64,000 nucleotides of DNA from Escherichia phage RB43, in sequence record NC_007023.1. The stretch is one strand, 5' to 3'. Within the stretch, counting starts at the first letter, position 1. The number at the start of each line of letters is the position of its first letter. Shown one piece after another: positions 3,274 through 52,400 of this stretch. Both the position numbers and the translations under genes were made by a program. The notes below the pieces were generated by a model, which worked only from the letters and a program-made list of their open reading frames with translations, had not been told where the DNA came from and made no database searches.

Positions 3274-3282
3274 GGATAACCA

Positions 3283-4674
3283 ATGAGTAACAACACAATT
3301 AACCACGTAAGCGATGCGTCCGTTTACGTGACTTTTGATCCGGCAGGTACGCAATGGCCCTCGACTTTCGTCAACGTACAGCAAGCATTAGCCTCTATAG
3401 GCCCGTGGGCGCGTACTGATGTTGGTTTGCCTAACGCGGCTCCTGGTATGCGTGGTATTGCTGCTATTGCTACCGAGGCGATGATTGACGCAGGGACAGA
3501 CAACGAAACGATCGTTACTCCTGCATTGCTGGCATATCGTTTACAAAATCCTCATGCGTCACAAACCGTTTGGGGATATACCAAATACGCAACTGATGCG
3601 GAAGCGGTTGATGTCGCAAACGATCTGGTTTCATTAACTCCGCGTTCGATCAATGTGGTTTTCAATACCAGACACGCATCAGAAACCGTGTGGGGTTCTT
3701 CTAAACTGTCAACGACAGCACAGGCAACAGCGGGTACTGATGATACAACCTCAATGACACCATTGAAGGTAAAACAAGCAATCTCTGCTCTGGTTCCGGT
3801 ACAATCCAACGCAACAGAAAGCGCGTTCGGTTTGGTTCAGTTGGCTACGGTTTCAGAAGTCCGCGCGGGTACTATTCGCGACGGTTTCGCAATTTCACCG
3901 TATACGTTTATTCGTCTGAATGCAACAGAAAGCGATCTGGGTATTGTTCGCCTAGCAAGTCAGGCAGAAGTAAACGCAGGAACTGATGATACCAAAGCCG
4001 TTACCCCGTTAAAACTGGCTAACCTTAAAGGCTCCGGTGGTTCTTTCGGTTTGGTTAAATTATCAACAGAAGTAAACGCAGGGCTGGCTAACACTGCTCT
4101 TTCTGCGGGTGCTAACGTAGTACCGAGCAACCGTGACAGCGCTATCACTGGTGGTGCATTGTATCAGGGTTCAGTTGCTGCTGCTAATAAATACCAGACA
4201 CATAGCGATATCGAAGCATCGTTACCGATTGGCTGTATGATGATGGCTGCATTTAACTCCGATTACGGAAACCTGTGTATTGCCAACGGTCGCGGGATGT
4301 ATACATACGAATACCCTGAACTGTTTGCACTTATAGGTTATACGTATGGCGGTAGTGGTAACATTTTCAACCTTCCCGATATGCGAGGCGTGGTTGCTCG
4401 TGGATTTGATGCGGGACGTGGTTTAGACCCAGGTCGCGGTTTTGGTACATACCAGCATCACGAAGTACAGTCACATGAACACCCTCTGCAAATGATCTAT
4501 CAGTCTGGTGGTAACTTACCATCATGGCAGTGTGTTTATGAACTGCGTACTGCGGAGAAAAACGACCAGCAATTATACTGGCCTGATCCTTCACTCAGTA
4601 AAGCAATGGCTGTTGGCGGCAACGAAACGCGAATGAAGAACCTTGCGATCAACTATGTAATTCGAGTACGATAA
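3283..4674 (+). CDS. 12: short tail fibre protein gp12
   Basis: 463 aa; position after gp11; repeated ...A(T/G)TDDT..VTP(L/A)K... motifs typical of T4 gp12/gp34 fibre repeats; C-terminal His-rich receptor-binding-like region. Confidence 0.8.
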   Translation: MSNNTINHVSDASVYVTFDPAGTQWPSTFVNVQQALASIGPWARTDVGLPNAAPGMRGIAAIATEAMIDAGTDNETIVTPALLAYRLQNPHASQTVWGYTKYATDAEAVDVANDLVSLTPRSINVVFNTRHASETVWGSSKLSTTAQATAGTDDTTSMTPLKVKQAISALVPVQSNATESAFGLVQLATVSEVRAGTIRDGFAISPYTFIRLNATESDLGIVRLASQAEVNAGTDDTKAVTPLKLANLKGSGGSFGLVKLSTEVNAGLANTALSAGANVVPSNRDSAITGGALYQGSVAAANKYQTHSDIEASLPIGCMMMAAFNSDYGNLCIANGRGMYTYEYPELFALIGYTYGGSGNIFNLPDMRGVVARGFDAGRGLDPGRGFGTYQHHEVQSHEHPLQMIYQSGGNLPSWQCVYELRTAEKNDQQLYWPDPSLSKAMAVGGNETRMKNLAINYVIRVR

Positions 4675-26287: not shown

Positions 26288-26824
26288 TTGTCAGATGGTA
26301 AAGAAATCGAGAACGTTATATTCCTCGATATTGACGGCGTGTTAAATAATATGCGCTCTATGAAATTCGGTGAACATATGGACATCGAATGTGCGCGACA
26401 TCTACGCCGGATCGTCAACCATGCAAATTGTGATATCGTTGTTTCTTCAACGTGGCGCATTGGGAACACGACACACACCCTACGCGAAATCCTGTACCCC
26501 TGGGGCTTGTATCGCGTTATCGGTCGAACCTGTAGCAACATGGTTGGTAATTGTGTGCGTGGTGATGAAATAAAGGCGTGGATCGATACGTTCGGATGTA
26601 AGAACTACATGATCCTTGATGATGATTGTGATATGTTGCCAGAACAAAAAGATCACTTCGTCAGAACAGATCCTGAAATCGGGCTTACCGAAGAACAATC
26701 AACCTTTGCGATCCGCAATATATTTGGAGTAACAACCCCGTTTTGTCCTGAATGCAACGGCTATGGGCGCGTGAACCAATACGATAAATGCGGTAGCTGT
26801 AACGGTAAAAAATTGCGTCTATAA
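26288..26824 (+). CDS. HAD-superfamily phosphatase with C-terminal Cys-rich zinc-ribbon (apparent TTG start)
   Basis: N-terminal FLDIDGVLN (HAD motif I), SSTWR, ILDDD motifs; C-terminal CPECNGYG...CGSCNGKK; no in-frame ATG upstream of motif I. Confidence 0.6.
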   Translation: MSDGKEIENVIFLDIDGVLNNMRSMKFGEHMDIECARHLRRIVNHANCDIVVSSTWRIGNTTHTLREILYPWGLYRVIGRTCSNMVGNCVRGDEIKAWIDTFGCKNYMILDDDCDMLPEQKDHFVRTDPEIGLTEEQSTFAIRNIFGVTTPFCPECNGYGRVNQYDKCGSCNGKKLRL

Positions 26825-28416: not shown

Positions 28417-29250
28417 TCAACCCCATGTATCGGTTTTGGGTGCGTATGCTGCAACTTTAGCAACCAATTCCTTATCAAGCTGGTCAATAGATTTCTGTGC
28501 TTTACCTTTTGACTTAACTTTGATGTAGTTAGACTTGACAACAAACATACCGCCTTTGTCAGATTTTTTGATCTCGCTATCGATACCAACTTTGTTAAAG
28601 CTGATCCAGATATCACCATCCATATACTGTTTCAGTGAATCGCCCATGTTCAGGATCTTAGCCATAGTAAGAGCGGCCCCTTCGTGGGTATCCATGAGGA
28701 TCTCTTTAGGAACCACACGGTCACGTTTCAGGTTCTGCTGCATAGCAATATGAACATCGTTCATTACCCAAACGATATGGATGTTTTCTTTATGGTATCC
28801 CAGCGTTTCAACGTCACGGGCAATGCTTGCCAGCTTGCTCATGCTTTTTAGGGTAACGTCGAAAATCAGGTTTGGTTTGCGGTCTTCTGGTGCTGCTGCA
28901 ATACCAGCATAAACACGCGCCTGGTTTTTGTTGGATACGTTGAAAACGTCTGCGATCACATGATGCAGGGTTGCCACGTTATCCGGGTTTTTCAGGTTCA
29001 TGGTTTTAACATCATGACCAGTTTTAGCTTTGATTTCTGCCGCCAGTTTGGTGCTACCCATTACCAGCTTTTTCAGTGCGTCAACGTCCAGTGTGATTCC
29101 TTCGATACCTAACAGTTTTTCGAGGGTAAAACCTTTACCGGAACCCGCACCGCCAGCCAGGATCACAACCTGACCAAATTTAGGATATGCCTTGCCGCCA
29201 AACGTAATCAACGCTTCGTCAAGGGATACAAAGTCTTTGAATGATTTCAT
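28417..29250 (-). CDS. P-loop NTPase, putative nucleotide/nucleoside kinase
   Basis: Walker A VVILAGGAGSGKGF; hydrophobic-D Walker B-like LIFDVT; 277 aa; RBS GGAG; immediately upstream of the HAD nucleotidase. Confidence 0.5.
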   Translation of the reverse strand: MKSFKDFVSLDEALITFGGKAYPKFGQVVILAGGAGSGKGFTLEKLLGIEGITLDVDALKKLVMGSTKLAAEIKAKTGHDVKTMNLKNPDNVATLHHVIADVFNVSNKNQARVYAGIAAAPEDRKPNLIFDVTLKSMSKLASIARDVETLGYHKENIHIVWVMNDVHIAMQQNLKRDRVVPKEILMDTHEGAALTMAKILNMGDSLKQYMDGDIWISFNKVGIDSEIKKSDKGGMFVVKSNYIKVKSKGKAQKSIDQLDKELVAKVAAYAPKTDTWG

Positions 29251-29362: not shown

Positions 29363-30283
29363 ATGAAACTTGAATTAAACCGCTTCATCAAAGCCGCTGC
29401 TGCTGGCGACCAGTCAAAATACAAATCCCGTCGCGATACCCTGATTGACGATTTCTGTAATCTGCTGGGGTTCAAGCGCTGGCATACTCCGTCTATGCGT
29501 CCAGACTGTGATCCAAAATGGGATTACTTCAAATGGACTCCCCGCGATCGTGGTTATGTCGATAACGTCCGCGTAATGACATTCACTCATATGTACGCAA
29601 ATGCAATAATAGAAGTTGCCAAACGTAATAATTCTACGTACCCGAACGGGTGGAAGGTTGCAGAAGTCATTGAAACCCTGATGCAACTGCGCCGTGAATA
29701 TAAAGCTGGAATGATGATGCAACTGCGCCGTGAATATAAAGCTGGAATGATACGTAAATTGGAAGAACAATCCGAAAGACATGAATATAAAGAATGGTCT
29801 ATCGTCGCAAAATATCTGCTGAACATCACCTATTCGGTTTTCTGTCGCTTCGGAACAAAAGAAATCGGGTTCGGTTCTCATGATATCATTGCAGAAGCCC
29901 GTCATCGCCTGACATACGCGATCCTGAAAATTCAAAATTCCGGTGGTCTTGTTCTGGCTGCATTCTGTGATGAAATTGTGTACTACGGCGATCAGGTTGA
30001 AGTTGAAGGTGTTCACCACGAAAAATTCAACAAACTTGTGTTCGGACAATATAACAGCTATTCATACGGAAACGATATCCGCGTGATGATGCACCCGCGT
30101 ATTATGCTGGATATGGAAGGGTGGGAACCTGGACACGGGATCGGTGATATCGAAAGCCAGCGTGAACGCCGTGTTCGTTCTGTCGCAAAAGCTCGCGAAT
30201 TGATGACGGGTAGCCTTACTGATTACCTGTTCAGAACAAAAGAAGACGTTGAAAAAGAATTTGTTGACTTGTCGGGCGAATAG
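29363..30283 (+). CDS. hypothetical protein (contains 12-aa in-frame tandem duplication)
   Basis: 306 aa ORF; LMQLRREYKAGM duplicated. Confidence 0.55.
   Translation: MKLELNRFIKAAAAGDQSKYKSRRDTLIDDFCNLLGFKRWHTPSMRPDCDPKWDYFKWTPRDRGYVDNVRVMTFTHMYANAIIEVAKRNNSTYPNGWKVAEVIETLMQLRREYKAGMMMQLRREYKAGMIRKLEEQSERHEYKEWSIVAKYLLNITYSVFCRFGTKEIGFGSHDIIAEARHRLTYAILKIQNSGGLVLAAFCDEIVYYGDQVEVEGVHHEKFNKLVFGQYNSYSYGNDIRVMMHPRIMLDMEGWEPGHGIGDIESQRERRVRSVAKARELMTGSLTDYLFRTKEDVEKEFVDLSGE
29681..29752 (+). repeat. 36-bp direct tandem duplication (2 copies)
   Basis: ATGCAACTGCGCCGTGAATATAAAGCTGGAATG repeated with 36-bp period. Confidence 0.9.
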
Positions 30284-33322: not shown

Positions 33323-33757
33323 ATGGATAGCCATTTCTTGTTTGACTACGCACCAGAAAGACGGCGCATAATTCTCCCTGAAAACGGTTTTAACGGGCTT
33401 TACTCGAATGGTATGGATATCATCGACTATAACGAGTTAGACACGTACAAAGCCGCTGACGAAGCGAGAAAGGTAGCTGGGAACTTCGATTACCAAAATG
33501 AATGGACACAAAGGCGTTATGCGAGAAATGCAGTTCAGATATTGCGCGAAAATTTAGACAGCCCGACTGACTTCGTGTTATTTTGGGCTATCGAAAAGGA
33601 TTTTTGTGTCAAGGGCGGTACGGCTATCGCAACACGCCTTGCACGATTATACGGTGTTCCCAGTTTCAACCTGTGGAAAGAAAACGTATTGAATGATGTT
33701 TGTGATACTTTGGGGATTAATATCAAACCTCCAACTTTGGATTTTCTCTGGTGCTAA
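33323..33757 (+). CDS. SLOG/DprA-like Rossmann-fold protein, 3' portion (conserved 5' part lies in another frame from ATG 33174)
   Basis: ORF from ATG 33323; same frame is open from 33233 (..LAYSGGAPGMDSH); ATG 33174 ORF (MNFKTVLENAKTATLIGSREPP...) ends 33281; together resemble GSR...SGGAxGxD pattern; assignment tentative. Confidence 0.4.
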   Translation: MDSHFLFDYAPERRRIILPENGFNGLYSNGMDIIDYNELDTYKAADEARKVAGNFDYQNEWTQRRYARNAVQILRENLDSPTDFVLFWAIEKDFCVKGGTAIATRLARLYGVPSFNLWKENVLNDVCDTLGINIKPPTLDFLWC

Positions 33758-33823
33758 CTCCCGAACAATCACGTAATTACGAACGCCTCTCAGTTGAAGA
33801 GGCACTTAAAAAGGTTAAGAACA

Positions 33824-34027
33824 ATGGTAGAGATCAACGGAATCGGGGTGAACCCGAACGCATTAATTTCAAAGAACGATCCTCGTTGCGGTCGTAGTCC
33901 TACGCTGGCAGAACGTGCGCGTAAGCTGGTAGAGGAAACAAACGGCAAGATGTTTGAAACATGCCGTGAAGAAATCACCCGCAACATTCTAAGTTTTCCA
34001 ACAAAACAATCATACACGTTGATATGA
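33824..34027 (+). CDS. hypothetical protein
   Basis: 67 aa from ATG 33824 (ORF track has upstream alternative start 33794). Confidence 0.4.
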   Translation: MVEINGIGVNPNALISKNDPRCGRSPTLAERARKLVEETNGKMFETCREEITRNILSFPTKQSYTLI

Positions 34028-34245
34028 AACGTTTTGTTGGTACGACGATGGGGCAAGAATGCACCAAACGTGCGTTTGATATGATCGGGGAATGGCTGAC
34101 CGAAGAAGGTTTAACCTATGAAACCCAAGCGGTAAGAACGTCTGCCGCAATACAATATGCAATGAGTAACCGCCGTATTTCAGGAAACGCCCCTGTAACT
34201 GAAAGAACTGGGTATAGCGAATACACGTATTTCATCACCTGGTAA
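34024..34245 (+). CDS. hypothetical protein
   Basis: 73 aa ORF with ATGA overlap to upstream ORF. Confidence 0.45.
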   Translation: MKRFVGTTMGQECTKRAFDMIGEWLTEEGLTYETQAVRTSAAIQYAMSNRRISGNAPVTERTGYSEYTYFITW

Positions 34246-34264
34246 AAAAGTTTGAAATAGTTGT

Positions 34265-34291
34265 TGACGGGAGTTCTGATTATGATAAGAT
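34265..34291 (+). promoter_or_regulatory. putative sigma70-type early promoter
   Basis: TTGACG, 15-nt spacer, TAAGAT; same TTCTGAT..TAAGAT architecture recurs at 45641-45668. Confidence 0.35.
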
Positions 34292-34332: not shown

Positions 34333-34590
34333 ATGGAAATCAAATTAATCCCTACTTGCGCTGGTTACTGCTTGGCACTGAACGGTGTAGCAAACAACGG
34401 CAAAGGCTTACGGGCTAACGTTGAAGCAATGCTGAATGAACTGGCGTTGCGGAGTGAACCTGGGATGCAGTATGAGTATGATGACGTTGCAACCAGCGTT
34501 AAAATCTCTAATCTGGTGATGAATGGTGTTGACTGTGCGGGTGGTGGGATTGCTACATCGACTATGCAGACAATCGGGTTTTCTTACTGA
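34333..34590 (+). CDS. hypothetical protein
   Basis: 85 aa ORF with RBS AAGGAAAAC. Confidence 0.5.
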   Translation: MEIKLIPTCAGYCLALNGVANNGKGLRANVEAMLNELALRSEPGMQYEYDDVATSVKISNLVMNGVDCAGGGIATSTMQTIGFSY

Positions 34591-34619
34591 CCAGCAACTA
34601 AGGAATGTTATGAAAGATT

Positions 34620-35020
34620 ATATTTCAGAAGCAGAAGCGCTTGAAGAAAGCGGTTTTCAAGTCACCATTGACGATGAAGAAGATGGTGGCTATGATGGCG
34701 GTGTTATGTGGGGGCTTAAACGTCCACAACGTAAAACCCCTGTTCAATATTCTGATGGTTCAGTAAGATACGAAACGGTTGTTAAAGAAGTAAACGGGCG
34801 CGTCATTACGTCCGAACGGCAGAAGGACATTAAACAATTGTATGATGTCGCAAAAGCCGCTAAAGTAGGAACCGAGATTGTTTGTCCGGTGTGCAAAGAG
34901 AAACACAAGAAGACGACCTATCATAAGGTGTTCTGCTCTAATGGCAAAAAATCCAGGAAAGACTGCAAGAGTAAATACTGGAACACGATTCATCCTGAAC
35001 GTTTGGATCGTATCTTTTAA
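34620..35020 (+). CDS. hypothetical protein with CxxC motif
   Basis: 133 aa from ATG 34620 (RBS AAGGAA); CPVCKEK...C; ORF track has longer GTG/TTG version from 34523. Confidence 0.5.
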
Positions 35021-35042
35021 TCAAAACGTGGAGTACGTTTAA

Positions 35043-36473
35043 ATGCAAACTTTTAATGAACTGAATAGCATCATCACCTCAACCGATTCCTACAAAGTGT
35101 CTCACTGGATGCAGTATCCGCAAGGCACTGATGCAGCGATGTTCTATATCGAATCTCGCGGTGGTAAATTTGATGAAGTAGTAACCGCTGGCGTTAACTA
35201 CGTTGCGCGGGTTCTCGCTGAACCAATTACCATGAAGCAGGTTGAGTTAGCGCGGGTACTTTACCGTAAACACTTCGGAAAAGAGATCTTTAACTACGAA
35301 GGGTGGAAAAAGATTGCTGAACTGGGTTACACCCCTGTAATTTTCCGTGCGATCCCAGAAGGTACGGTGTTCCGGGAAAAATGCCGTGCGACTGTGTACG
35401 CCGAAAACGAATTCTCGTGGCTGGCTGGGTGGCTGGAGACAATGACGATTCGCGGTATTTGGTATCCGTCATCTGTAGCAACGCTATCGCGTGAGTGTAA
35501 AAAGGTTCTGGCACACTACCTGGATATGACTTCTGACCTTACTGGCGAAGCATATAACATCACACTGGGTACACGTCTGCATGATTTTGGGGCGCGGGGC
35601 GCGACCTCTGCTGAATCTGCTGGCATTGGTGGGCTGGCACACCTTTATAACTTCATCGGCACTGATACCGTAGAAGGGATGATTATGGCAATCAGCCTCT
35701 TTGCGGATTATCAAACACTGTTTGATGAAGTTGAAAACGTAGAAGTAGCTGGGGTTTCCATCCCTGCTCGTGAGCATTCAACTACGATTTCCTACGGTAA
35801 AGAAAACGAAGACGAAGCATATAAAAACAGCATTGAAATGTTCGGTGATGGGTTCTACGCTTGCGTATACGATTCATGGGACTACAAAGCCGCTGTTGAC
35901 CGGATCGATAGTTATAAAGAGAAAATCATTGCATCTGGCGGTGTGTTGGTAGTGCGTCCAGACTCAGGGGATATGATAGACAACATCATGTACACCTTGC
36001 GCAAACTGGGGCAAATCTTCGGATATACTGTCAACTCCAAAGGGTACAAAGTTCTTCATAACTCTGTTCGTATCATCCAGGGTGACGAGATCCACGGGCC
36101 TGAAACAATCAACCGTGTATTAAGCTGGATGGAAGCGAACAAATGGTCGAGCGAAAACATTGCGTTCGGTATGGGTGGCGGTTTGCTGCAAGAAGTTACC
36201 CGCGATACCCAGAAATATGCTGAAAAACTTTGCGCTATCCGTATCAACGGTGTGTGGAAAGGCGTTTACAAATGCCCGAAAGGTTCGGAATGGAAAAAGA
36301 GCAAGAAAGGTTTATTGATGACCATCACTAACGGGATGGAATTCAAGACAATCGATTCTCTCGAAGAATCTATTCCTGCTGGGTGGTTTGATGCGATGGT
36401 AACTTATTATGACAATGGTTATCTGAACAAAACTGACACTTTAGGGGAAATTCGTGAGCGTAGCCGGATTTAA
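35043..36473 (+). CDS. nadV: nicotinamide phosphoribosyltransferase (NadV/NAMPT family)
   Basis: 476 aa; N-terminal ...TDSYKVSHW...YPQGT..., GTRLHDFGARGATS, IRPDSGD, RIIQGDEI, FGMGGGLLQ motifs typical of NAMPT/NAPRTase family. Confidence 0.8.
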   Translation: MQTFNELNSIITSTDSYKVSHWMQYPQGTDAAMFYIESRGGKFDEVVTAGVNYVARVLAEPITMKQVELARVLYRKHFGKEIFNYEGWKKIAELGYTPVIFRAIPEGTVFREKCRATVYAENEFSWLAGWLETMTIRGIWYPSSVATLSRECKKVLAHYLDMTSDLTGEAYNITLGTRLHDFGARGATSAESAGIGGLAHLYNFIGTDTVEGMIMAISLFADYQTLFDEVENVEVAGVSIPAREHSTTISYGKENEDEAYKNSIEMFGDGFYACVYDSWDYKAAVDRIDSYKEKIIASGGVLVVRPDSGDMIDNIMYTLRKLGQIFGYTVNSKGYKVLHNSVRIIQGDEIHGPETINRVLSWMEANKWSSENIAFGMGGGLLQEVTRDTQKYAEKLCAIRINGVWKGVYKCPKGSEWKKSKKGLLMTITNGMEFKTIDSLEESIPAGWFDAMVTYYDNGYLNKTDTLGEIRERSRI

Positions 36474-36762
36474 TATCCGCGCCAACGATAACGGATCTGT
36501 AATCTTCTATAACAATCAGCCCCTTGTTGCTCGCAAGGGGCTTTTTTGTAAGTTAGTTGGGTATGGGTTCAAGTTGGAACAGGTGGATAATGCAACACTA
36601 AAAGAGATCGTGCGCATAGCCTATCTCCTGAAAGATAAGAAAGATGAACATAAGGCGGTTGCAATGCTGGAGAAATTGGGAGAAAATCATTGCTTCATCA
36701 TAAATCGTGGATACAAATACGATACAATCGCTTTATTTGAAAAAGGGCTTAGTGAACTATGA
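36454..36762 (+). CDS. hypothetical protein (GTG start)
   Basis: 102-aa ORF; SD AGGGGA 5 nt upstream of GTG; overlaps 3' end of nadV. Confidence 0.4.
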   Translation: MSVAGFNIRANDNGSVIFYNNQPLVARKGLFCKLVGYGFKLEQVDNATLKEIVRIAYLLKDKKDEHKAVAMLEKLGENHCFIINRGYKYDTIALFEKGLSEL

Positions 36763-37610
36763 ATTATTTGGGTGTGATACCTTACACGGGCAACAAACAG
36801 GATCTATTGCATAAGTTGTTTGAACTGTTTCCCGACCACCGACACTATCGTAGATTTGTCGATTGCTTCTGTGGTGGATTGAGCGTGTCGTTAAACGTTC
36901 CCAAACCAGTTCTAAGCAACGATTTCGATAAGACACTGATTGATGTATATAAGGTTCTTAAACGCGCTCCTGATCTCTCAGAGGTGCGAGAATTGATTGC
37001 TAAGAAGGGACTGAACAAAGAAAACAAAGATGCGTACCTGGCTTTTCGTGAAGAATACAACCAGCATCGCGATCCGCTGTGGCTGTACGTTCTGATCCTT
37101 CATTCATTCAGCAATGTCAACCGCACCAATGAGAAGGGAGAGTTTAACGCGCATTTTGGATACCGGACGATAAACGCATCAACGGTTAAGCGCTTTGAAC
37201 ACTTCAAGGCAAACGTAGCCGGAATTGAATTCACTTCTGGTTCTTACTCTGATATTGAAATCAGGGACACCGATTTTGTATACTGCGATCCTCCGTACCT
37301 GATTACGGATGCGGTGTATAATAAATTCTGGAATGCTGATCGCGAACGCGAGTTATACGCATTTCTTGACTCGCTTAACGAGCGGGGCATTTGGTTTGGA
37401 TTGTCCAACGTGACACACCATGCCGGAAAACAAAACGATATCCTGATTGAATGGATGAAGAAATACACCGTTCACAACCTGGATAAAAAGTATCTGTTAG
37501 GCCAGCATACAGAATCCTATGAGCAAAACAAAACTCAGGAGGTGTACGTGTGCAACTATCAGAAACGTGATGTAAATACATTCCCCTTAACACTCGATGA
37601 TTTAATGTAG
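36759..37610 (+). CDS. dam: DNA adenine methyltransferase (Dam)
   Basis: 283 aa; ...YTGNKQ.LL..L...FP....F.D.FCGGLSVSLNV..PVL.ND... and DPPY motif match T4 Dam. Confidence 0.9.
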   Translation: MNYLGVIPYTGNKQDLLHKLFELFPDHRHYRRFVDCFCGGLSVSLNVPKPVLSNDFDKTLIDVYKVLKRAPDLSEVRELIAKKGLNKENKDAYLAFREEYNQHRDPLWLYVLILHSFSNVNRTNEKGEFNAHFGYRTINASTVKRFEHFKANVAGIEFTSGSYSDIEIRDTDFVYCDPPYLITDAVYNKFWNADRERELYAFLDSLNERGIWFGLSNVTHHAGKQNDILIEWMKKYTVHNLDKKYLLGQHTESYEQNKTQEVYVCNYQKRDVNTFPLTLDDLM

Positions 37611-37889: not shown

Positions 37890-37923
37890 TAAATAATGAC
37901 ACCTTACTTTGAATGGTGTTATT

Positions 37924-38406
37924 ATGCTGACGAAACGAATTACCAAAAAAGATTACCCCTCAATCAAGCAAGCTCTCTTTGACAAACAAGGGGGCTGCTG
38001 TGCTTTATGCAAGCGTCCTTTAGAGGGAGACATTGAAAAACATCACCTCGATCATGACCATGCTTTAGACGGCGAAAACGCCGGACGTGTGCGCGGCCTA
38101 CTGTGTAACCTATGCAACGGTACAGAAGGTATTGTAAAGCACAAATTTAACCGATCCGGTCTTGTGTCTCGTGATGTTGATTATATTGTCTGGTTGGAAA
38201 ACCTGCTTGCATATCTGAAACAAGATTATTCCGAAAACCGTATTCATGACAAATTCATACCAGATAAGGTAAAATGGTTTTCAAGACTTACCAAACCTGA
38301 TATGATTGCCGAAATGGTTTCTATGGGCTTCGAGTACGCCGAAAAAGACGAACGCAAAGCCTTAACCGCAAAATATAGAAAGCAATTAATGAAGGCAACG
38401 AAATGA
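37924..38406 (+). CDS. 49: endonuclease VII (gp49), Holliday-junction resolvase
   Basis: ...GGCCALCKRPL......HLDHDHAL.G..AG.VRGLLCNLCN..EG..KHKFNRSGL...VDY..WLENLL.YLK.DY..N.IH..F...K..FSRL matches T4 gp49; ORF track start 37909 is an alternative. Confidence 0.85.
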   Translation: MLTKRITKKDYPSIKQALFDKQGGCCALCKRPLEGDIEKHHLDHDHALDGENAGRVRGLLCNLCNGTEGIVKHKFNRSGLVSRDVDYIVWLENLLAYLKQDYSENRIHDKFIPDKVKWFSRLTKPDMIAEMVSMGFEYAEKDERKALTAKYRKQLMKATK

Positions 38407-38909
38407 ATGAAAAATATACGGAACTTGATGAACTTCTCAAGTGCGTAAGTGTAGACATTTGTAGCGGTGTTGTTACGTGGACTAAGCCAACAAACCGAAA
38501 AATTTGTATAGGCCAATCTGCTGGTGTTGTTGATAAAAACGGGTATACTGTTATCGGGTTCAAAGGGAAGAAATTCTTCCGACACCACGTTATATGGTAT
38601 GCGATTCATGGTACACTACCAGAAAAACCGTATGTTATTGATCATGTTCACGGAGTTGAACGTGGCGATGGGGTTTCGAACCTACAAAAGATTACACAAC
38701 AACAAAACATCATGAAGAAAAAGGTTCAGAGAAATAATAAATCTGGACATAAAGGCGTACATTGGTGCAACACATACAACAAATGGGTTGCAAAAATAAA
38801 GTTCAATGGAAAATCAATTTATATCGGAGAGTATGACGATTTGAATGATGCTATCAACGCAAGAATTCGCAAATCTCAAGAACTCTTTGGTGAGTTTGGA
38901 GAAATATAA
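38403..38909 (+). CDS. free-standing HNH homing endonuclease with AP2-type DNA-binding domain
   Basis: HHVIWYAIHGTLPEKPYVIDHVHGVERGDGVSNL (HNH) then GHKGVHWCNTYNKWVAKIKFNGKSIYIGEYDDLNDAINAR (AP2-like); inserted between gene 49 and nrdD. Confidence 0.75.
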   Translation: MNEKYTELDELLKCVSVDICSGVVTWTKPTNRKICIGQSAGVVDKNGYTVIGFKGKKFFRHHVIWYAIHGTLPEKPYVIDHVHGVERGDGVSNLQKITQQQNIMKKKVQRNNKSGHKGVHWCNTYNKWVAKIKFNGKSIYIGEYDDLNDAINARIRKSQELFGEFGEI

Positions 38910-41032
38910 TGCTTGTAGAAAAACGCGACGGCAAAACCGTTGATTTTGATAAAGAAAAAATCCGTATTGCTGTAGAAAAAGCTGGCGGGACTATGACGGA
39001 TGCTGATGCCGCAATCATGCTGGTTCAGTACAATCAGATCCGCGATGGTAGCGCAATGAAGATCGCCCGTATCCAGGAACTCGTTGAAGAATCCCTGATG
39101 AAAACGAACCCAGCGGTCGCCCGTGCATACATCGAATATCGTCACGATCGCGATATTGCCCGTGAACAGAAAAGTAAGCTGTTCAAAGATATCTCCGGTA
39201 TGGTGAATCTGTCCAACAAAGAGATCACCAACGAGAACGCGAACAAACACGCAAGGGTATTCCCGACACAGCGCAATTTGCTGGCGGGTATTGTAGCGAA
39301 GCATTTCGCCCGTAATCATATCCTTCCGAAACATATCGTAGAAGCGCATGACTCCGGCGACATCCACTATCATGATCTGGATTACAGCCCGTTCACGCCA
39401 TACACAAACTGCTGTCTGGTGGATTTGAAAGGTATGCTGGCTAATGGCTTCAAGATGGGTAACGCAGACATCGAACCCCCGAAATCAATCGGTGTTGCGA
39501 CTGCTCTTATGGCACAGATCACCGCACAGATTGCTTCTCACCAGTACGGCGGGACAACCTTTGCAAACGTGGATAAAGTGCTGGCTCCGTATGCAGAAAT
39601 GACATATGAAAAGCATGTTAAGGATGCTAAAAAGTATAAAATTTCGTTAGATCGTACATATGCGATGGAAAAGACTGAAAAAGATGTGTTTGATGCTTTC
39701 CAATCGTATGAATACGAAGTTAACACGCTGCATACTGCCAACGGACAAACACCTTTCGTTACTATTACTTTCGGTACTGGTACGGGAATGTTTGAACGGA
39801 TGATCCAGAAAGCTATTCTGAAAAACCGTATCCGTGGCCTGGGTAAAAAAGGTATTACTCCGGTATTCCCTAAACTGGTTATGTTCATGGAAAAAGGCAT
39901 TAACCTTGATCCAGAGGATCGCAACTATGACATCAAACAACTGGCTCTGGAATGCGCTTCAAAACGTATGTACCCAGATATCATTAGTGCATATAATAAC
40001 CGTCGCATCACTGGTTCTAGCGTTCCTGTATCTCCTATGGGTTGTCGCAGTTTCCTTAGTGTGTGGCATGATGATAACGGTAATGAAGTTCTGGATGGAC
40101 GTAATAACCTGGGTGTGGTGACAATCAACCTCCCGCGTATTGCTCTTGAAGCACAATCGCAGGAAGATGAAGACGCACATGACGCATTCTGGCGTATCCT
40201 TGATGAACGTCTGGAACTGTGCTTTGAAGCCCTGATGACTCGCATCGATAGCCTACGCGGTGTTAAAGCCAGTGTAGCCCCGATCCTGTACACGGAAGGT
40301 GCATTCGGTGTTCGTCTGAATCCTGATGATGAAATCCTGGAACTGTTCAAAAATGGGCGTAGCTCTATCAGTCTGGGTTATATCGGATTGCATGAAACGC
40401 TGTTAATGTTCGGCTCCGGTCAACATCCGTTCGATCGTATTGGCTCTCAAAATGTGGGTAAACTGATTCTGGAATATCTACGCGCCGCGACCGAGGCATG
40501 GAAAAAGAAAACTGGATTTGGTTTCAGTCTGTATTCAACCCCTGCCGAATCTCTCTGCCATCGCTTCTGTAAGCTGGACTTTGAGAAGTTCGGGAGTGTG
40601 AAAGGGATCACGGATAAAGGCTGGTACACAAACAGTTTCCATCTGGACGTAGACCGCACAGTGACACCGTTCGAGAAAATCGACTATGAAGCCGATTATC
40701 ATTACATTGCATCTGCTGGTCATATCAGTTATGTCGAATTCCCTGATATGAAAAACAACCTGCAAGCCCTGGAAAAAGTCTGGGATTATGCAATGGAAAA
40801 ACTGGACTATTTCGGAACTAACCTTCCGGTCGATAAGTGCTTTGAATGTGGTGCTGATGATGAATTCACTCCTACAGAAGACGGTTTCCACTGTAAACAT
40901 TGTGGTAATCACGATCCGGCAAAAATGAGCGTTACACGCCGTACATGCGGTTATCTGGGTGCTCCTGCTGTCCGTGGTTTCAACGAAGGTAAGAACAAAG
41001 AAATGATGCACCGCACTAAGCATCAAAATTAA
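38909..41032 (+). CDS. nrdD: anaerobic ribonucleoside-triphosphate reductase NrdD
   Basis: 707 aa; ATP-cone N-terminus (VEKRDGK.V.FD..KI), conserved catalytic blocks, C-terminal CxxC...CxxC zinc site and glycyl-radical region; uninterrupted (no intron). Confidence 0.92.
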   Translation: MLVEKRDGKTVDFDKEKIRIAVEKAGGTMTDADAAIMLVQYNQIRDGSAMKIARIQELVEESLMKTNPAVARAYIEYRHDRDIAREQKSKLFKDISGMVNLSNKEITNENANKHARVFPTQRNLLAGIVAKHFARNHILPKHIVEAHDSGDIHYHDLDYSPFTPYTNCCLVDLKGMLANGFKMGNADIEPPKSIGVATALMAQITAQIASHQYGGTTFANVDKVLAPYAEMTYEKHVKDAKKYKISLDRTYAMEKTEKDVFDAFQSYEYEVNTLHTANGQTPFVTITFGTGTGMFERMIQKAILKNRIRGLGKKGITPVFPKLVMFMEKGINLDPEDRNYDIKQLALECASKRMYPDIISAYNNRRITGSSVPVSPMGCRSFLSVWHDDNGNEVLDGRNNLGVVTINLPRIALEAQSQEDEDAHDAFWRILDERLELCFEALMTRIDSLRGVKASVAPILYTEGAFGVRLNPDDEILELFKNGRSSISLGYIGLHETLLMFGSGQHPFDRIGSQNVGKLILEYLRAATEAWKKKTGFGFSLYSTPAESLCHRFCKLDFEKFGSVKGITDKGWYTNSFHLDVDRTVTPFEKIDYEADYHYIASAGHISYVEFPDMKNNLQALEKVWDYAMEKLDYFGTNLPVDKCFECGADDEFTPTEDGFHCKHCGNHDPAKMSVTRRTCGYLGAPAVRGFNEGKNKEMMHRTKHQN

Positions 41033-47949: not shown

Positions 47950-49373
47950 TTTTTAAAACGATTGAATGTGTTCCGTCAAGTGGTAAGACAAAGGCGATTC
48001 TGAACCATATCAATCAAACGGGCGAAAAAGCAATCATAGCGTCGATTTCCATGATGTTATCAAAACAGTCTTATGACTATTACATCAATGAAGTTAAAGG
48101 GAAACGCGCTGTGATTGTGGACACGGATCACCGAACAAAACGAACCAACAACGATGCGCTGAAAGAAGTCATAAAAGATTTTGATGTGATTTTTATCACC
48201 CATGCAGCGCTAAAAAACATCGATGACTTTGATTTGTATAAGGATTATTCCTTGTATATTGATGAAGTTCCCGATCTGGTATCGTTCGAAAGTCTGCGAT
48301 TTAATAGCAATATCAAGCACATACGCGAGATTTGCTTGCCGTTTAGTTGCAATGCCGATGATATCGTTGATTTAAAACTTGACGAAGAAAAACGAGAACT
48401 GGTTACACGATTGGCCTACGATGGATTACGCAAACGTGATGATATAGCCGTTAAGATGTTTCCACTATACCGCGCTCTGTTGGGCGAAATTCCGGTAAAG
48501 ATGCAATGCAGCGATTCGGGCTATGTTTGCTACTTCGTAGAAGACCATGATGTTAGTCAGTGGAAGTTTAAAAATGTGACCATTGCTTCATCCAATATCA
48601 GAGATACGATTACAGGCAAGATCCTGAACAAGTTTCATGATGTGGAATTCGAAGAATCACCATTACAAAAGCTGGTTGACTTCAAGCAATACAAAAACAC
48701 AGGGCGCATACATATACATGTGCTCGCAGAGGGGGATTATTCGCGTTATACGGGCGATCTTTCTCAATCTGGGACGACAGTATACACTCAGATTAAAAAA
48801 CGCGTAGAGGCGCTTCTGGGAGGCGAACAGTTCATATACTGTACCAATACGTACCGATCGAAATTTAGCGACGGGCAGGAAATCCCGTATAACTCGCATG
48901 GTTTGAACTTCTATTCAAGCTATACAAACGTAGTTGCTTTGTTCAGTTACAACCCGTTACCCTGGCTGCGTCAAATGCTCCGAGCGGTTGCGGTTTCCTC
49001 CGGTTTAGAAGAGGAAGAATTAGTTGATGCGTATGTTGTCAGTAAATATTATGAACCAGCTTTCCAGTTATGCGCACGTTCTGATATTCGACACAATAAC
49101 AGCAAACGTAAAATTAATTTGTTTGTTCCTGATATGCGGTTAGCGAAATACATGAAGGAGAAGTATTTTCCTGATGCTGTAATCGAAACCTCAGAAGCAG
49201 TACAAACGAAAAGGCAGCGCAAATCATTTCAGTCTCTTTTCCAGATGACAGCACAAGAAATTAATGCTTTCAACTGGTATAAAAAGAAACACAAATTAGA
49301 TTTCGCTAATCCTCTTCACCACGCGATTGTAAAAGACTGGCTTAACAATTACCGTGAGAAAAAGGCGACTTGA
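47946..49373 (+). CDS. hypothetical protein with deviant Walker-A-like (PSSGKT) and Walker-B-like (YIDEVP) motifs
   Basis: 475 aa ORF immediately upstream of the tail-fibre module; function not recognised. Confidence 0.5.
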   Translation: MIFKTIECVPSSGKTKAILNHINQTGEKAIIASISMMLSKQSYDYYINEVKGKRAVIVDTDHRTKRTNNDALKEVIKDFDVIFITHAALKNIDDFDLYKDYSLYIDEVPDLVSFESLRFNSNIKHIREICLPFSCNADDIVDLKLDEEKRELVTRLAYDGLRKRDDIAVKMFPLYRALLGEIPVKMQCSDSGYVCYFVEDHDVSQWKFKNVTIASSNIRDTITGKILNKFHDVEFEESPLQKLVDFKQYKNTGRIHIHVLAEGDYSRYTGDLSQSGTTVYTQIKKRVEALLGGEQFIYCTNTYRSKFSDGQEIPYNSHGLNFYSSYTNVVALFSYNPLPWLRQMLRAVAVSSGLEEEELVDAYVVSKYYEPAFQLCARSDIRHNNSKRKINLFVPDMRLAKYMKEKYFPDAVIETSEAVQTKRQRKSFQSLFQMTAQEINAFNWYKKKHKLDFANPLHHAIVKDWLNNYREKKAT

Positions 49374-49388
49374 TGGTCGCCTTTTTTG
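49362..49388 (+). terminator. rho-independent terminator overlapping stop of upstream gene
   Basis: GGCGACTTGATGGTCGCC hairpin followed by TTTTTTG. Confidence 0.6.
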
Positions 49389-49390
49389 TT

Positions 49391-49398
49391 TATAAATA
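49391..49398 (+). promoter_or_regulatory. T4-type late promoter -10 box (TATAAATA) upstream of gene 34
   Basis: Exact TATAAATA about 30 nt upstream of gp34 ATG. Confidence 0.55.
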
Positions 49399-49428
49399 TC
49401 AGTATTGAATAGATAAAGGAAAACGATA

Positions 49429-52400
49429 ATGGTAGCTAAATCATTCCGCGCCACAAGTGGCCTTGATGCTGCTGGCGAAAAGGTTATCAACGTTGGTAAA
49501 GCATCCCGCTCTGTGTTGAGCGACGGCGTGAACGTTGACTTTTTTAACGAATTTAACACCGTACAACAGTACGATCCTGCTCGCGGTTATTCTGCGTTTA
49601 TGGCTATCATATATGCGCGTCGTATTTGGTATGCTCGTGCGGATATTGCATCACCAGCAGGGGCTTTTGATGAAACAAAATGGATTTCAACCCGTAACGA
49701 TCCGAAATGGGTTTATAACAACGTAACAAGTGTTGATGGTCTTCCCGTTGAATCCGGTACATACTTAATGGCTGATGGTCGTTTCTCTGAACTGACTTAT
49801 ATTCTGCCAGATGCACCAGTAGAAGGGGATATTATCACGATTAAAGATGGCGGCGGGATGGTTGGTATCAACAGTATGTTGGTACGTTCTAACACTCGTC
49901 AGATCCGTCTGCGTGATGTTCAATCCAGTTCTTACCGACTAACTCACCCATATATGACCGTTGCGTTTATTTTTAACGGTAACTTATGGCGCGTTGCTGA
50001 AATGTTAGACAACCGAGATTCACAGTTTGTGAACGCAACTGGTGCTGGATCTTTCCAGATGCAATCCGGTATGACTACATTCCGTAATAGCGGTACTGGT
50101 AAAATCACTCTTCAATTGCCGAAGTATGCAAACGATGGTGACTCCATCACAACTTACGACCTTGATAAACTGAGTTCGGTAAACGTTGCAACATTACAGG
50201 TATATCCTGGTAGCGGTCATACGATCACTTATGATAGCATTAACGGCGTAACCTCTGTTGCTTCACAGCGTTCCGGTTATGGTGTATTCATCTTTGACCA
50301 GACTAACAACCGCTGGGTTGTGTATGATGGTGATAACCGCGTTCGTCTGCGTCGTATCAGTTATGACCTGAACATGCTCCCGAACGATTATGTTTTCGTT
50401 ACTCCGATTGCTGGGAACCCTCCAACTATCCGTAACGTAACATTAACCCTCCCGCAAGATGTTGCAGAAGGGGATCGCGTGTACATCAGTATGTACATGA
50501 TGGGTAAAACACAGAACTGTACGATCAAAGTTAAAGATGGTTCCGGTGAAACAATCCGCACCAACAAAAACATGATGCAGTTCCCACAGCGTAAAGACTA
50601 TCCACCTGATGATTGGTTTAGCGTGACTACGCTTTCGTTTAACGCAGATACTGACTATCTTCCATATATGGAGTTGTCTTACCTGAAAGCAACGAAAGAA
50701 TGGGTTGTTGCACAGTATCGACCACTGGTTGAACGTGTTGATCCAACTAACCGTTCTCGTTTGGGTGTTATTGCGCTTGCTACTCAGGCAGAAGTAAACA
50801 AAAACCTGGAAGATTTGCCGTCTGATGAACTGGCAGTAACCCCGCGTACACTGGCGAATAAAACCGCTACTGAAACGCGCCGTGGTATCGCTCGCCTGGC
50901 GACGACAGCAGAAGTAAACCAGAACACTACGGCTACTTTTTTGGATGATATAATCGTAACGCCTAAAAAGCTGAACGAACGTACAGCAACAGAAGATCGT
51001 CGCGGTATACTGGAAATTGCTACTCAGGCAGAAACTAACGCTGGCACGGATGACACTACCGCAATCACGCCTAAAAAGCTCGATACGCGTCGTGCAACCG
51101 AAACCCTAGCAGGTATCGGAAAACTCGTCACCACGGGTGCTACGACTGCTGAGGGGGCTTTACGTGGGGATGCTGGTACTAACGTCTACAACTTCAATAA
51201 CGGTGTTGATCTGATCACTCCGAAATCGTTGAACGAGAAGACAGCAACCGAGAAATCGAAAGGTTTGGTTGTGCTGGCGACGGAAAACGAAGTTATTACG
51301 GGCGCTGCTGCTGGATCTGCTTCAATGCCGATCGTAGTTACTCCTGAAATGTTACATCGTAAAACGTCTACTGAGGCGCGGATCGGTTTGATTGAGATCG
51401 CAACTCAGACAGAAACCAACACAGGAACCGATGATACTCGTGCGGTAACGCCTAAAAAGCTGAATGATCGTAAAGCGACAGAAACGCTTGATGGTATTAT
51501 TGCACTGGCAACCACTGCGGAAGTTGCAGCGGGTACAGTAACGAATAAAGCGGTTGTTCCGGTTAAGTTGAAAGAGTTTTTCGACGTTGCTGGTCATATT
51601 GCTGTTGCAACTGCTGATGGTTTGACTCAATCCGGTACTATCTGGACTACGGTTAACCTGGGGATCGCGGCTGCTACTGAAACTCAACGTGGTACTTTGC
51701 GCGTTGCTACTCAGGCAGAAACAAACGCGGGTACTCTTGATACTGTTATCATCACTGCGAAGAAATTGCAAGCTAAAAAAGCTACCGACACAGCAGAAGG
51801 TATTATTCGCTGTGCAACGAATAGCGAAGCGGCTGCGGGTACTTCTACAAACCTGGCAATTACTCCGGCAACAATGCAGTATCTGAACGGTAACGATCCG
51901 GCGTGGGGTGCAACAACTACTCGTCGCGGTGCTGTATTCATTACCACTAAATCGAATACGTTCATTGGTGATAATCTGGTTGGTTCTACTCAACCTGTAG
52001 ACAGTTACCTTGAAGATTTCTATGCTGTATCGCCTCGCGGTCTTAACTTTGCCCTGCAAAACTTCTTACCGAAAATGGCAACAGCACAGAATAGCTTGAG
52101 TCTGGGTGGTGTGGTTGCTGCAAGTTGGATGCGTCGTGATGCTGATCAAACCGTAACGGGGAACAACAAGTATAACGGCACAAGCACTTTCGTGGGTAAC
52201 GTAGTTACTAACGGGACGCTGACGGCAAATGCTGCTGTAACCGTTAACGCAACAGTGACAACGAACAACAACATTAACCAATCTGCGAAAGCAAATACGG
52301 TTTATGCGAATACTGTTCTGGGTACTGCTGCTGCTGGAACCAAAAACCTGCTTCGTACTTTCCGTGGTGGTACAACGGATACTACATGGCATGAAACGGT

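Follow-up and report, generated by a model that had tools for sequence, protein, structure and literature searches.

The nadV gene of Escherichia phage RB43 very probably encodes the Nampt half of a NARP2 pathway

The closest described relative of the locus studied here is found in phage KVP40, whose NadV and NatV form the founding NARP2 system (Lee, Li and Miller 2017, in the account given by Osterman et al. 2024). The KVP40 Nampt makes NMN from nicotinamide and PRPP, an Nmnat is also present in 94% of the phages with a KVP40-like Nampt, and KVP40 NARP2 defeats the Thoeris and DSR2 defences (Osterman et al.). A further pathway, NARP3 of Bas30, consists of a PnuC-like transporter and a NadR-like enzyme and imports nicotinamide riboside (PMC13464706); like NARP2 it ends in NAD+ and follows a proposed counter-defence logic, while its enzymes and substrate differ. 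Neither NadR nor PnuC is listed in the annotation of the RB16 genome, which stands here for RB43.

RB43 is a T4-like phage (Pseudotevenvirus), and we analysed a stretch of 64,000 nucleotides of its genome (NC_007023.1), referred to below as the window. Our analysis indicates that the nadV gene in this window is very probably the Nampt half of NARP2, with natV located elsewhere in the same genome (Table 1). The RB43 pathway is an ordinary, already known copy of the two-enzyme pathway described for T4-like phages.

Table 1. Features of the nadV locus and the partner gene natV. Positions refer to the window except for natV, which is given in HE981739.1.
Feature	Position	Strand	Description	Basis
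Promoter candidate	34264..34291	+	sigma-70-like, TTGACG-16-TAAGAT, TG-extended; in the 88-nt gap 5' of orf85	weak candidate
orf85	34333..34590	+	85 aa, 5' of nadV, context only	phrog_7372
orf136	34610..35020	+	136 aa, context only	phrog_7424
Shine-Dalgarno-like GGAG	35030..35033	+	9 nt 5' of the nadV ATG	direct sequence reading
nadV	35043..36473	+	Nampt, predicted first NARP2 enzyme	ORF, Pfam, NCBIfam, PHROG, PDB, KVP40 identity
orf102	36454..36762	+	ORFan, GTG start	phrog_7497
Terminator-like hairpin	36518..36548	+	10-bp stem, 5-nt loop, T-run; 45 nt past the nadV stop	
dam	36759..37610	+	D12-class N6-adenine DNA methyltransferase, outside the pathway	Pfam MethyltransfD12, 1.8e-35
natV/nadM	HE981739.1 78938..79996	-	bifunctional NMN adenylyltransferase/Nudix, 352 aa	Pfam, NCBIfam, PDB

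Identity of the nadV product

The ORF list gives nadV an ATG start and a product of 476 aa, whose translation contains all four motifs on which a first-pass annotation, made from the letters of the window, had relied in naming the gene NadV (TDSYKVSHW, LGTRLHDFGARGATS, VVRPDSGD and FGMGGGLLQ). Pfam detects NAMPT_N (PF18127, 2.1e-24, residues 10-93) and NAPRTase (PF04095, 3.2e-38, residues 178-425), and RB43 NadV thus has the two-domain NAMPT architecture of NAMPT_N plus a type II PRTase barrel. The protein scored 442.7 bits against NCBIfam NF006629/PRK09198 over residues 8-475, exceeding the curated equivalog cut-off of 405, and matched PHROG 448 ('nicotinamide phosphoribosyl transferase') at 1.5e-158. 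It is 50% identical to KVP40 NadV, and its matches in the PDB include the Xanthomonas NAMPT 7YQO (5.5e-101, 342 bits) and mammalian NAMPT entries at approximately 283 bits. A PncB-type nicotinate PRTase was considered and rejected, since the NF006696 score of 14.6 bits falls far short of the 503 required and the equivalent of Asp219 is kept.

For the residue comparison, we used a phmmer alignment of RB43 NadV to 2gvl_A, a 491-residue chain in native numbering, together with a four-way alignment. All key NAMPT residues are kept in the RB43 protein, and most of them are invariant in the four-way alignment. In human NAMPT we take H247 to be the catalytic histidine, Tyr18 and Phe193 to stack on nicotinamide, Asp219 to confer amide specificity, and R196, R311, D313, G353-D354, G383-G384, R392, K400, K415 and K423 to be phosphate/ribose ligands; the RB43 counterparts are, in the same order, H245, Y17, F182, D208, R185, R305, D307, G347/D348, G378/G379, R387, K395, K410 and K418. 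Both lines of evidence that could have spoken against the name NadV, a better fit to another PRTase subfamily and missing catalytic residues, had been singled out by the first-pass annotation itself, and neither was found. Sequence comparison thus fully supports a genuine NadV/Nampt, for which Nampt activity is predicted.

The fold family and the catalytic and substrate-binding residues are common to RB43 NadV and the bacterial and mammalian NAMPTs (7YQO; rodent/human 2GVL, 2H3B), while an insertion that the mammalian enzymes have near residues 42-51 is absent from the phage protein, and human Ser275 is replaced by Ala273, as it is by Ala in the Xanthomonas enzyme. KVP40 NadV carries some 20 additional C-terminal residues that the RB43 protein lacks, and the loop around residues 217-235 is longer in RB43 NadV.

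The partner enzyme and the proposed pathway

The first-pass annotation had reported no NMNAT or Nudix signature in the window and no obvious partner for nadV. The former statement holds, since a six-frame phmmer search and a Pfam sweep of the window both came out blank. In the six-frame search, queries with RB43 NatV, RB43 NudE and two Adps proteins all failed to match the window at E<=1, and NMNAT, Nudix, PRPP synthetase, NADAR, Macro and ART were absent among the 17 Pfam families of 36 further non-structural window ORFs. The latter statement is correct for the window but not for the genome: RB43-GVA, a genome 99.8% identical in which we read natV, has a full-length NMNAT/Nudix gene about 36 kb ahead of the window start and about 71 kb from nadV. 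Hence, nadV looks partnerless in the window because natV lies beyond the window boundary, and its 'orphan' appearance is an effect of seeing just 64 kb of a genome of 180 kb. The NadV proteins of RB43-GVA and the window share 98.7% identity, and the window therefore represents an RB43 isolate that differs slightly from RB43-GVA.

NatV carries the Pfam domains CTP_transf_like and NUDIX and has full-length matches to bifunctional NMNAT/Nudix models of NCBIfam (best 3.8e-75). Because its equivalog scores lie under the curated cut-offs (253 bits vs 354-449), we regard it as a divergent phage member that belongs to no bacterial-subfamily equivalog. The best PDB match is 2qjo, the Synechocystis NadM-Nudix enzyme (2.7e-55, residues 2-349), the GRFQPFHNGH and LSATDLR motifs and the Nudix box are all intact, and identity to KVP40 NatV is 41% over the full length. 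The gene was present as a single copy in a six-frame scan of the window plus RB43-GVA 1-120,000.

Homologues with at least 60% identity occur in about 175 phage records for NatV and about 178 for NadV, and the two proteins co-occur almost one-to-one across the lineage. Orthologues in RB16, Slopekvirus and other Pseudotevenvirus members (including the nadM/NAMPT pair of vB_KP_P4) are 72-95% identical and agree in locus order; in these relatives natV maps near 77-79 kb and nadV near 150 kb. The RB43 pair shows practically no difference from these pairs, and RB43 nadV is a further allele of one gene. KVP40 is likewise T4-like (Straboviridae) and has matching NadV and NatV domain architectures, and in both phages the two genes are unlinked, lying about 43 kb apart in KVP40; the hosts (Enterobacteria for RB43, Vibrio for KVP40) and the genomic neighbourhoods differ. 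RB43-type coliphages would therefore carry a full NARP2 at two distant loci, as KVP40 does. Assignment to NARP2 is supported both by the Nmnat homologue in the same phage genome, read via RB43-GVA, and by the placement of RB43 NadV in the Nampt clade, closer to the KVP40 Nampt than to Namat enzymes. In Table S2 of Osterman et al., the RB16 orthologue HM134276_00238 is listed as 'Nmnat-associated' (NARP2).

In the proposed pathway, NadV would form NMN from nicotinamide and PRPP, and NatV would use ATP to adenylate NMN, yielding NAD+. If it acts as in KVP40 NatV, the Nudix domain would hydrolyse ADP-ribose to AMP and ribose-5-phosphate, from which host Prs could make PRPP again. With NMN made by NadV, NAD+ made by NatV and recycling through Nudix and Prs, the pair would therefore be able to rebuild NAD+ from the products that NADase effectors of host defence leave behind; alternatively, it may raise NAD+ generally during infection.

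The latter role, in which NARP2 boosts NAD+ for phage replication rather than countering defence, would involve identical biochemistry and differ in its selective reason. NARP2 raised NAD+ in defence-free cells too (Osterman et al.), consistent with earlier KVP40 reports, and nadV lies in a nucleotide-metabolism neighbourhood with rnlB, dam, nrdC, nrdD and nrdG. However, the abolition of Thoeris and DSR2 defence by KVP40 NARP2 speaks against a purely metabolic role, as does the narrowed host range of a related NAMPT-carrying Straboviridae Klebsiella phage, vB_KP_P4, upon deletion of nadM, an experiment done without complementation (PMC13505451). We therefore consider the purely metabolic explanation possible but rather unlikely. 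The two roles are compatible and not mutually exclusive, and RB43 NARP2 may act against host defences. As RB43 infects E. coli, it offers a convenient native-context system for studying NARP2 against NAD+-depleting defences.

Small genes and regulatory elements around nadV

The position of nadV between small uncharacterised ORFs and Dam was described correctly by the first-pass annotation; Pfam assigns the Dam protein to the D12 class, and the RB16 annotation also names dam downstream of nadV. The single unit that it had placed at 34333-35020 is in fact two genes, orf85 and orf136. Homologues of orf85 at the equivalent position are confined to RB16 and Slopekvirus Roth23. The orf136 product, whose RB16 counterpart RB16p238 has the same 136 aa, combines an acidic N-terminus with a conserved C-terminal four-cysteine domain (CxxC...FCSN...CK..YWN), in which C92, C95, C109 and C119 are invariant. 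Its AlphaFold2 model has a mean pLDDT of 66, with C-terminal blocks at 86-91, and a Foldseek comparison of this model with the PDB gave nothing significant (best E 0.58). On the other side of nadV, the start of orf102 overlaps the final 20 nt of nadV, an arrangement shared by RB16, JC221, Phynn and a metagenomic contig (L016), and orf102 is probably translationally coupled to nadV. Its homologues form only eight clusters, all at least 68% identical and none with a Pfam domain (0/8), and its AlphaFold2 model is unusable (pLDDT 45).

The terminator-like hairpin sits inside orf102, within its first 30 codons. Its fold energy is -24.4 kcal/mol (z = -2.28), and RB16 and Roth23 have an identical stem (100%), the sole change in Roth23 being a synonymous loop base. 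Scans of the region yielded 12 terminator-like sites where 9.2 were expected and 23 promoter sites vs 19.8 +/- 4.9 from shuffles, neither number being above chance. No T4-type late promoter (TATAAATA) was found between 26827 and 49391, which fits non-late expression of the nadV region, and nadV may be co-expressed early with its neighbours. One could imagine that orf136, nadV and orf102 form a regulated unit, in which orf102 is coupled to nadV, the hairpin acts as an attenuator of nadV-to-dam read-through, and one of the small proteins is a NadV modulator or a separate anti-defence factor; we regard this combination as improbable.

The three small ORFs might assist NadV, as regulators or by adding steps to the pathway. 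The gene order orf136-nadV-orf102 recurs across RB43, RB16, Slopekvirus, JC221 and metagenomic relatives, and the nadV stop is overlapped by the orf102 start. However, the entire 10-kb locus is syntenic in the phages that share this order, and the linkage is therefore explained by common descent. Furthermore, homologues of all three ORFs are missing from the surroundings of nadV in Aeromonas phages and KVP40, two genes on the opposite strand separate nadV from the orf136 homologue in Phynn, and the orf136 C-terminal domain also turns up at sites remote from nadV, in phages of the Felix-O1-like, Erwinia, Karamvirus and KVP40-like groups and in contigs. KVP40 NadV and NatV are moreover sufficient by themselves (Osterman et al.). 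Pfam and NCBIfam gave no match for orf85, orf136 or orf102, the PHROGs give no function, and a large-database search returned close phage homologues only, without domains; 0/3 have a detectable domain or an informative fold match. An accessory role is consequently very unlikely. The first-pass annotation had also proposed the flanking ORFs as candidates for the rest of the pathway, and this found no support: they lie beside nadV in one syntenic clade only, and Pfam, NCBIfam, PHROGs, homologues and the orf136 fold search pointed to no NAD-related function. They may or may not have the anti-defence function that it had offered as the other option. Of the search for NMNAT and Nudix domains that it had advised, the part directed at these neighbours gave no Pfam or NCBIfam match and the part directed at the rest of the genome led to NatV.

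Host conversion of NMN and the distinction from Namat

E. coli has NMN-processing enzymes, and some flux through them is plausible. NadV might then act as an orphan, with host NadR, or PncC together with NadD and NadE, converting NMN to NAD+. The window, which has no NMNAT or Nudix gene, agrees with such an arrangement, but the full-length NMNAT/Nudix gene of RB43-GVA with its intact motifs and the nearly constant company of NatV and NadV across the lineage make it highly unlikely.

A NARP1-type Namat would use nicotinamide and ADPR-pyrophosphate, supplied by a Prs-like Adps, in place of PRPP. Namat and Nampt have identical Pfam domains and identical annotation, and the Namats of SpBetaL1 (9W5X), Bas63 and FADO share NAMPT_N, NAPRTase and the catalytic core with RB43 NadV; in addition, about 79% of phage homologues are Adps-associated, and the KVP40 Nampt has minor ADPR-PP activity (Osterman et al.). 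NARP1 is set apart by a selectivity-clamp helix with aromatic residues and by an Adps gene next to that of the Namat; RB43 lacks both. The published Namat signature, GSxPhixPhixPhiTRD (PMC12774641), in which aromatic residues occupy the x positions, fits the helices of the validated FADO (GSFTYQYNTRD) and Bas63 (GSYTYQYMTRD) enzymes, whereas RB43 NadV (GGGLLQEVTRD) and KVP40 NadV (GGGLLQQLDRD) are both of the Nampt type (GGGLLQxxxRD). RB43 NadV is 25-31% identical to the validated Namats, and it scored 126-186 bits against Namats (Bas63 126, FADO 177, SpBetaL1 185.6) vs 283-428 bits against Nampts (KVP40 NadV 427.7, PDB NAMPTs 283-342). The Adps proteins of Bas63 and FADO found no match at E<=1 in the six-frame translation of the window plus RB43-GVA 1-120,000, and the RB16 annotation contains no Adps or Prs-like gene. 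Given the helix motif, the identity pattern and the missing Adps, together with the Nmnat in the genome and the Nmnat-associated label of the RB16 orthologue, Namat is strongly disfavoured by sequence and was ruled out as an exceedingly improbable reading.

For the NARP2 assignment itself, the importance is mainly one of annotation, with little beyond correct naming. The RB43-GVA records that now read 'protein of unknown function' could be renamed NadV and NatV, and RB16p129, currently a 'cytidyltransferase', could be renamed NatV.

Identity of NadV

The ORF assigned to nicotinamide phosphoribosyltransferase (NadV) in the first-pass annotation is present, and its translation contains all the motifs quoted there. 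The protein matches the Pfam families NAMPT_N and NAPRTase. With NCBIfam NF006629/PRK09198 it scores 442.7 bits, above the curated threshold of 405, and PHROG 448, 'nicotinamide phosphoribosyl transferase', is hit at 1.5e-158. Its best relatives of solved structure are the bacterial NAMPT 7yqo (5.5e-101) and mammalian NAMPT entries (about 283 bits). Residues were mapped by aligning the protein with chain 2gvl_A (491 residues), for which native numbering was used. All mapped human positions are conserved, namely (RB43 residue in brackets) Y18 (Y17), F193 (F182), R196 (R185), D219 (D208), H247 (H245), R311 (R305), D313 (D307), G353/D354 (G347/D348), G383/G384 (G378/G379), R392 (R387), K400 (K395), K415 (K410) and K423 (K418). 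From the structural literature on NAMPT, we take these to be nicotinamide, PRPP or NMN binders or the autophosphorylation site. A PncB-type nicotinate PRTase was rejected as an alternative identity, the corresponding model giving just 14.6 bits (cut-off 503). The assignment was thus correct, with neither a different PRTase subfamily nor a missing catalytic residue found.

Phage NAMPT-family proteins form two groups: Nampt, which together with Nmnat constitutes the NAD+ rebuilding pathway NARP2 (prototype KVP40 NadV and NatV), and Namat, which together with a Prs-like Adps constitutes NARP1 and uses ADPR-pyrophosphate, not PRPP (Osterman et al. preprint). A structural study (PMC12774641) distinguishes Namat from Nampt by a helix, the 'selectivity clamp', that Nampt does not have; its motif is GSxPhixPhixPhiTRD, where each x is aromatic. 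We aligned RB43 NadV with KVP40 NadV and the Namats of Bas63 and FADO, whose Adps sequences were also fetched. At the helix, RB43 reads GGGLLQEVTRD and KVP40 GGGLLQQLDRD; FADO and Bas63 read GSFTYQYNTRD and GSYTYQYMTRD, respectively. By phmmer, KVP40 NadV scored 427.7 bits against RB43 NadV (50% identity by BLASTP), FADO Namat 177 and Bas63 Namat 126, while the SpBetaL1 Namat structure 9W5X reached 185.6 bits and genuine NAMPTs 283-342. Judged by these comparisons, RB43 NadV is a Nampt, and its expected partner is therefore an Nmnat.

The distant partner natV and the predicted pathway

The first-pass annotation had described NadV as lacking an obvious partner NMN adenylyltransferase in the window. 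For the window this was borne out, as a six-frame phmmer search found no NMNAT or Nudix match at E<=1 and a Pfam sweep of 36 further ORFs found no NAD-related domain. That NadV has no partner did not hold up: natV is encoded outside the window, and it appeared to be missing because of where the window is cut. In RB43-GVA, a near-identical isolate (record HE981739.1), natV precedes the window start by about 36 kb and is separated from nadV by about 71 kb. Its product, CCL97602.1, corresponds to the 353-aa 'cytidyltransferase' RB16p129 of the RB16 RefSeq record (77,775-78,836). It contains the Pfam domains CTP_transf_like and NUDIX. Seven NCBIfam models named 'bifunctional nicotinamide-nucleotide adenylyltransferase/Nudix' match it over the full length, the top one (3.8e-75, 253 bits) scoring under the lineage-specific equivalog cut-offs. 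Aligned with its top PDB match, Synechocystis NadM-Nudix 2qjo (2.7e-55, residues 2-349), the protein shows the nucleotidyltransferase motif GRFQPFHNGH, an ISSTxxR-type motif (LSATDLR) and an intact Nudix box. Identity to KVP40 NatV is 41% over the full length. When six-frame translations of the window and RB43-GVA 1-120,000 were searched with phmmer, NadV, NatV and a NudE-type Nudix protein each turned up once, and no Adps/Prs-like sequence was found.

As in RB43, the two genes are unlinked in KVP40, where natV (94,507-95,532) and nadV (138,214-139,707) are 43 kb apart. Homologues of at least 60% identity were found by tblastn in about 175 phage records for NatV and about 178 for NadV, in the same Pseudotevenvirus and Slopekvirus groups; in records oriented as RB43, natV maps to about 76-79 kb and nadV to about 148-151 kb. 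Adjacent copies occur in a few other phages, such as Mesorhizobium phage Cp1R7A-A1 (natV 49,248-50,261; nadV 50,267-51,508). Across these records, a distant natV and nadV is evidently the usual layout.

RB43 NadV and NatV are both members of their families with intact motifs. In the proposed mechanism, NadV would convert nicotinamide and PRPP to NMN, which the N-terminal domain of NatV would adenylate to NAD+. On the KVP40 model, the NatV Nudix domain may convert ADP-ribose to AMP and ribose-5-phosphate, and host Prs would recycle the latter to PRPP, so that NAD+ would be rebuilt from what the NADase effectors TIR, SIR2 and SEFIR produce. The KVP40 genes abolish Thoeris and DSR2 defence and also increase NAD+ in defence-free cells (Osterman et al. 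preprint); for the RB43 pair, we infer enzyme activity and a counter-defence role. The RB43 nadV locus is an ordinary, already known member of the NARP2 pathway, because published work covers the pair: the RB16 orthologue HM134276_00238 is listed as 'Nmnat-associated' (Osterman et al. Table S2), and a 176-kb Straboviridae Klebsiella phage carries nadM (natV) and NAMPT at distant ORFs, with deletion of nadM, without complementation, narrowing the host range (2026 paper, PMC13505451).

Flanking ORFs and a hairpin 3' of nadV

nadV belongs to a plus-strand run consisting of srd-like, rnlB, dprA-like, small ORFs, nadV, orf102, dam, nrdC, endonuclease VII, a probable homing endonuclease and nrdD. 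No T4-type late promoter motif was found within 26,827-49,391; a sigma-70-like site lies upstream of orf85 (34,264-34,291), in a promoter scan that was not enriched over shuffles.

Features of the nadV locus (window positions) and of natV (RB43-GVA positions)
Feature	Position	Strand	Description
orf85	34333..34590	+	small ORF upstream of nadV
orf136	34610..35020	+	small ORF upstream of nadV
Shine-Dalgarno	9 nt upstream of nadV ATG	+	GGAG; sequence reading
nadV	35043..36473	+	476 aa
orf102	36454..36762	+	GTG start overlaps last 20 nt of nadV
Terminator-like hairpin	36,518-36,548	+	10-bp stem, 5-nt loop, T-run; inside orf102, 45 nt past nadV stop
natV	78,938..79,996	-	CCL97602.1, 352 aa; annotated 'protein of unknown function'; counterpart of RB16p129

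The neighbours of nadV had been proposed to supply the rest of the pathway or an anti-defence function. The upstream stretch 34333-35020 comprises two plus-strand genes, orf85 and orf136. The overlap of orf102 with nadV recurs in RB16, JC221, Phynn and one metagenomic contig. None of the three ORFs has a match in Pfam or NCBIfam, and the PHROGs to which they belong have no assigned function. Their homologues adjoin nadV in RB16 and Slopekvirus, and none was found beside nadV in the Aeromonas (Biquartavirus) or KVP40 loci. This linkage carries no independent information, since the whole 10-kb locus is syntenic in every phage where these ORFs flank nadV. Homologues of orf102 form only eight clusters, all at least 68% identical, and its AlphaFold2 model (pLDDT 45) is unusable. 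The N-terminus of orf136 is acidic and variable; its C-terminal domain (residues ~68-136, CPxC...KTTYHKVFCSNGK...CK..YWN) is conserved and contains four invariant Cys. This domain is found away from any nadV in Felix-O1-like, Erwinia, Karamvirus and KVP40-like phages and in short contigs, and by its distribution is a widespread small phage domain without a Pfam model. It is confidently predicted in the AlphaFold2 model of orf136 (pLDDT 66), for which Foldseek found nothing significant in the PDB (best E 0.58). Domain matches, linkage and the orf136 fold thus give no support to a completion of the NAD+ pathway by these neighbours, which may have an anti-defence role unrelated to it.

In Klebsiella phage Roth23 (Slopekvirus, locus L012), the orf102 homologue (L012 4912..5214) is annotated from an ATG at L012:4969. 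The true start probably lies further upstream: the frame remains open, and is conserved in the manner of coding sequence, as far as a GTG located 14 nt ahead of the nadV stop, which agrees with the overlap in RB43 and RB16.

The stem of the hairpin is 100% identical in RB43, RB16 and Roth23. The Roth23 sequence flanking it has many differences, several of them synonymous, and the sole change within the hairpin is a synonymous loop base. With a fold energy of -24.4 kcal/mol (z = -2.28), the hairpin fits a constrained RNA structure within a coding stretch, a lead from three sequences. It may serve as a partial terminator, an attenuator or an RNA-stability element in the interval from nadV to dam.

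Related genomes and other genes of the region

By megablast against a phage collection, segment 34000-37700 is 99.8% identical (100% coverage) to two Pseudotevenvirus RB43 (isolate RB43-GVA) records, 98.4% to Buttiauxella phage GuL6 and 94.6% to RB16. Bases 1-3,909 match HE981739.1 exactly from 116,092, which makes the window the rightmost third of a ~180-kb T4-like genome. Since NadV is only 98.7% identical to that of RB43-GVA (~6 residues differ) and the alignment offset shifts, the window comes from a slightly different RB43 isolate. Base 1 corresponds to 116,092 and base 34,000 to 149,828; the offset thus changes by a net 263 bp, indicating at least one indel within window positions 3,909-34,000.

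The match of the DprA-like ORF (33323..33757, plus strand, 144 aa) to phrog_768 begins only at profile position 44, and the orthologues of this ORF in RB16, Roth23, Phynn and JC221 have 193-194 aa and start inside the rnlB end; the RB43 copy may be truncated N-terminally or have an upstream start in another frame. The plus-strand ORFs 33794..34027 and 34024..34245 (77 and 73 aa) correspond to the N- and C-terminal halves of phrog_7671 (145 positions). Because these halves sit on two ORFs and the RB16 gene is whole (RB16p236, 142 aa), we read the pair as a frameshifted or split gene in this isolate, or as a sequencing error. Between the endonuclease-VII-like gene (37909..38406) and nrdD (38909..41032) lies a 168-aa plus-strand ORF (38403..38909), probably the source of HNH_3/AP2 Pfam matches and probably a homing endonuclease. 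At this site JC221 has no insert, Roth23 has endonuclease VII directly followed by nrdD, and RB16 has one larger homing endonuclease.

Further upstream, ORF 26288..26824 (plus strand) encodes a HAD_SAK_2 domain ('Swiss Army Knife' RNA-repair HAD phosphatase, 9.8e-29) and a C-terminal DnaJ-type CXXCXGXG zinc motif; the adjacent genes RB16p225 and RB16p226 at the equivalent locus are annotated 5'-3' deoxyribonucleotidase. One of the 36 swept ORFs matches Pfam Zeta_toxin (P-loop kinase, 2.7e-07). This is most likely the 277-aa minus-strand ORF 28417..29250, given its synteny with a 277-285-aa minus-strand gene labelled 'Zeta_toxin (faint)' in three compared relatives' loci (L014-L016); the RB16 counterpart is annotated hypothetical. 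Finally, within the 306-aa plus-strand ORF 29363..30283 an 11-residue segment is perfectly duplicated in tandem (MQLRREYKAGM MQLRREYKAGM).
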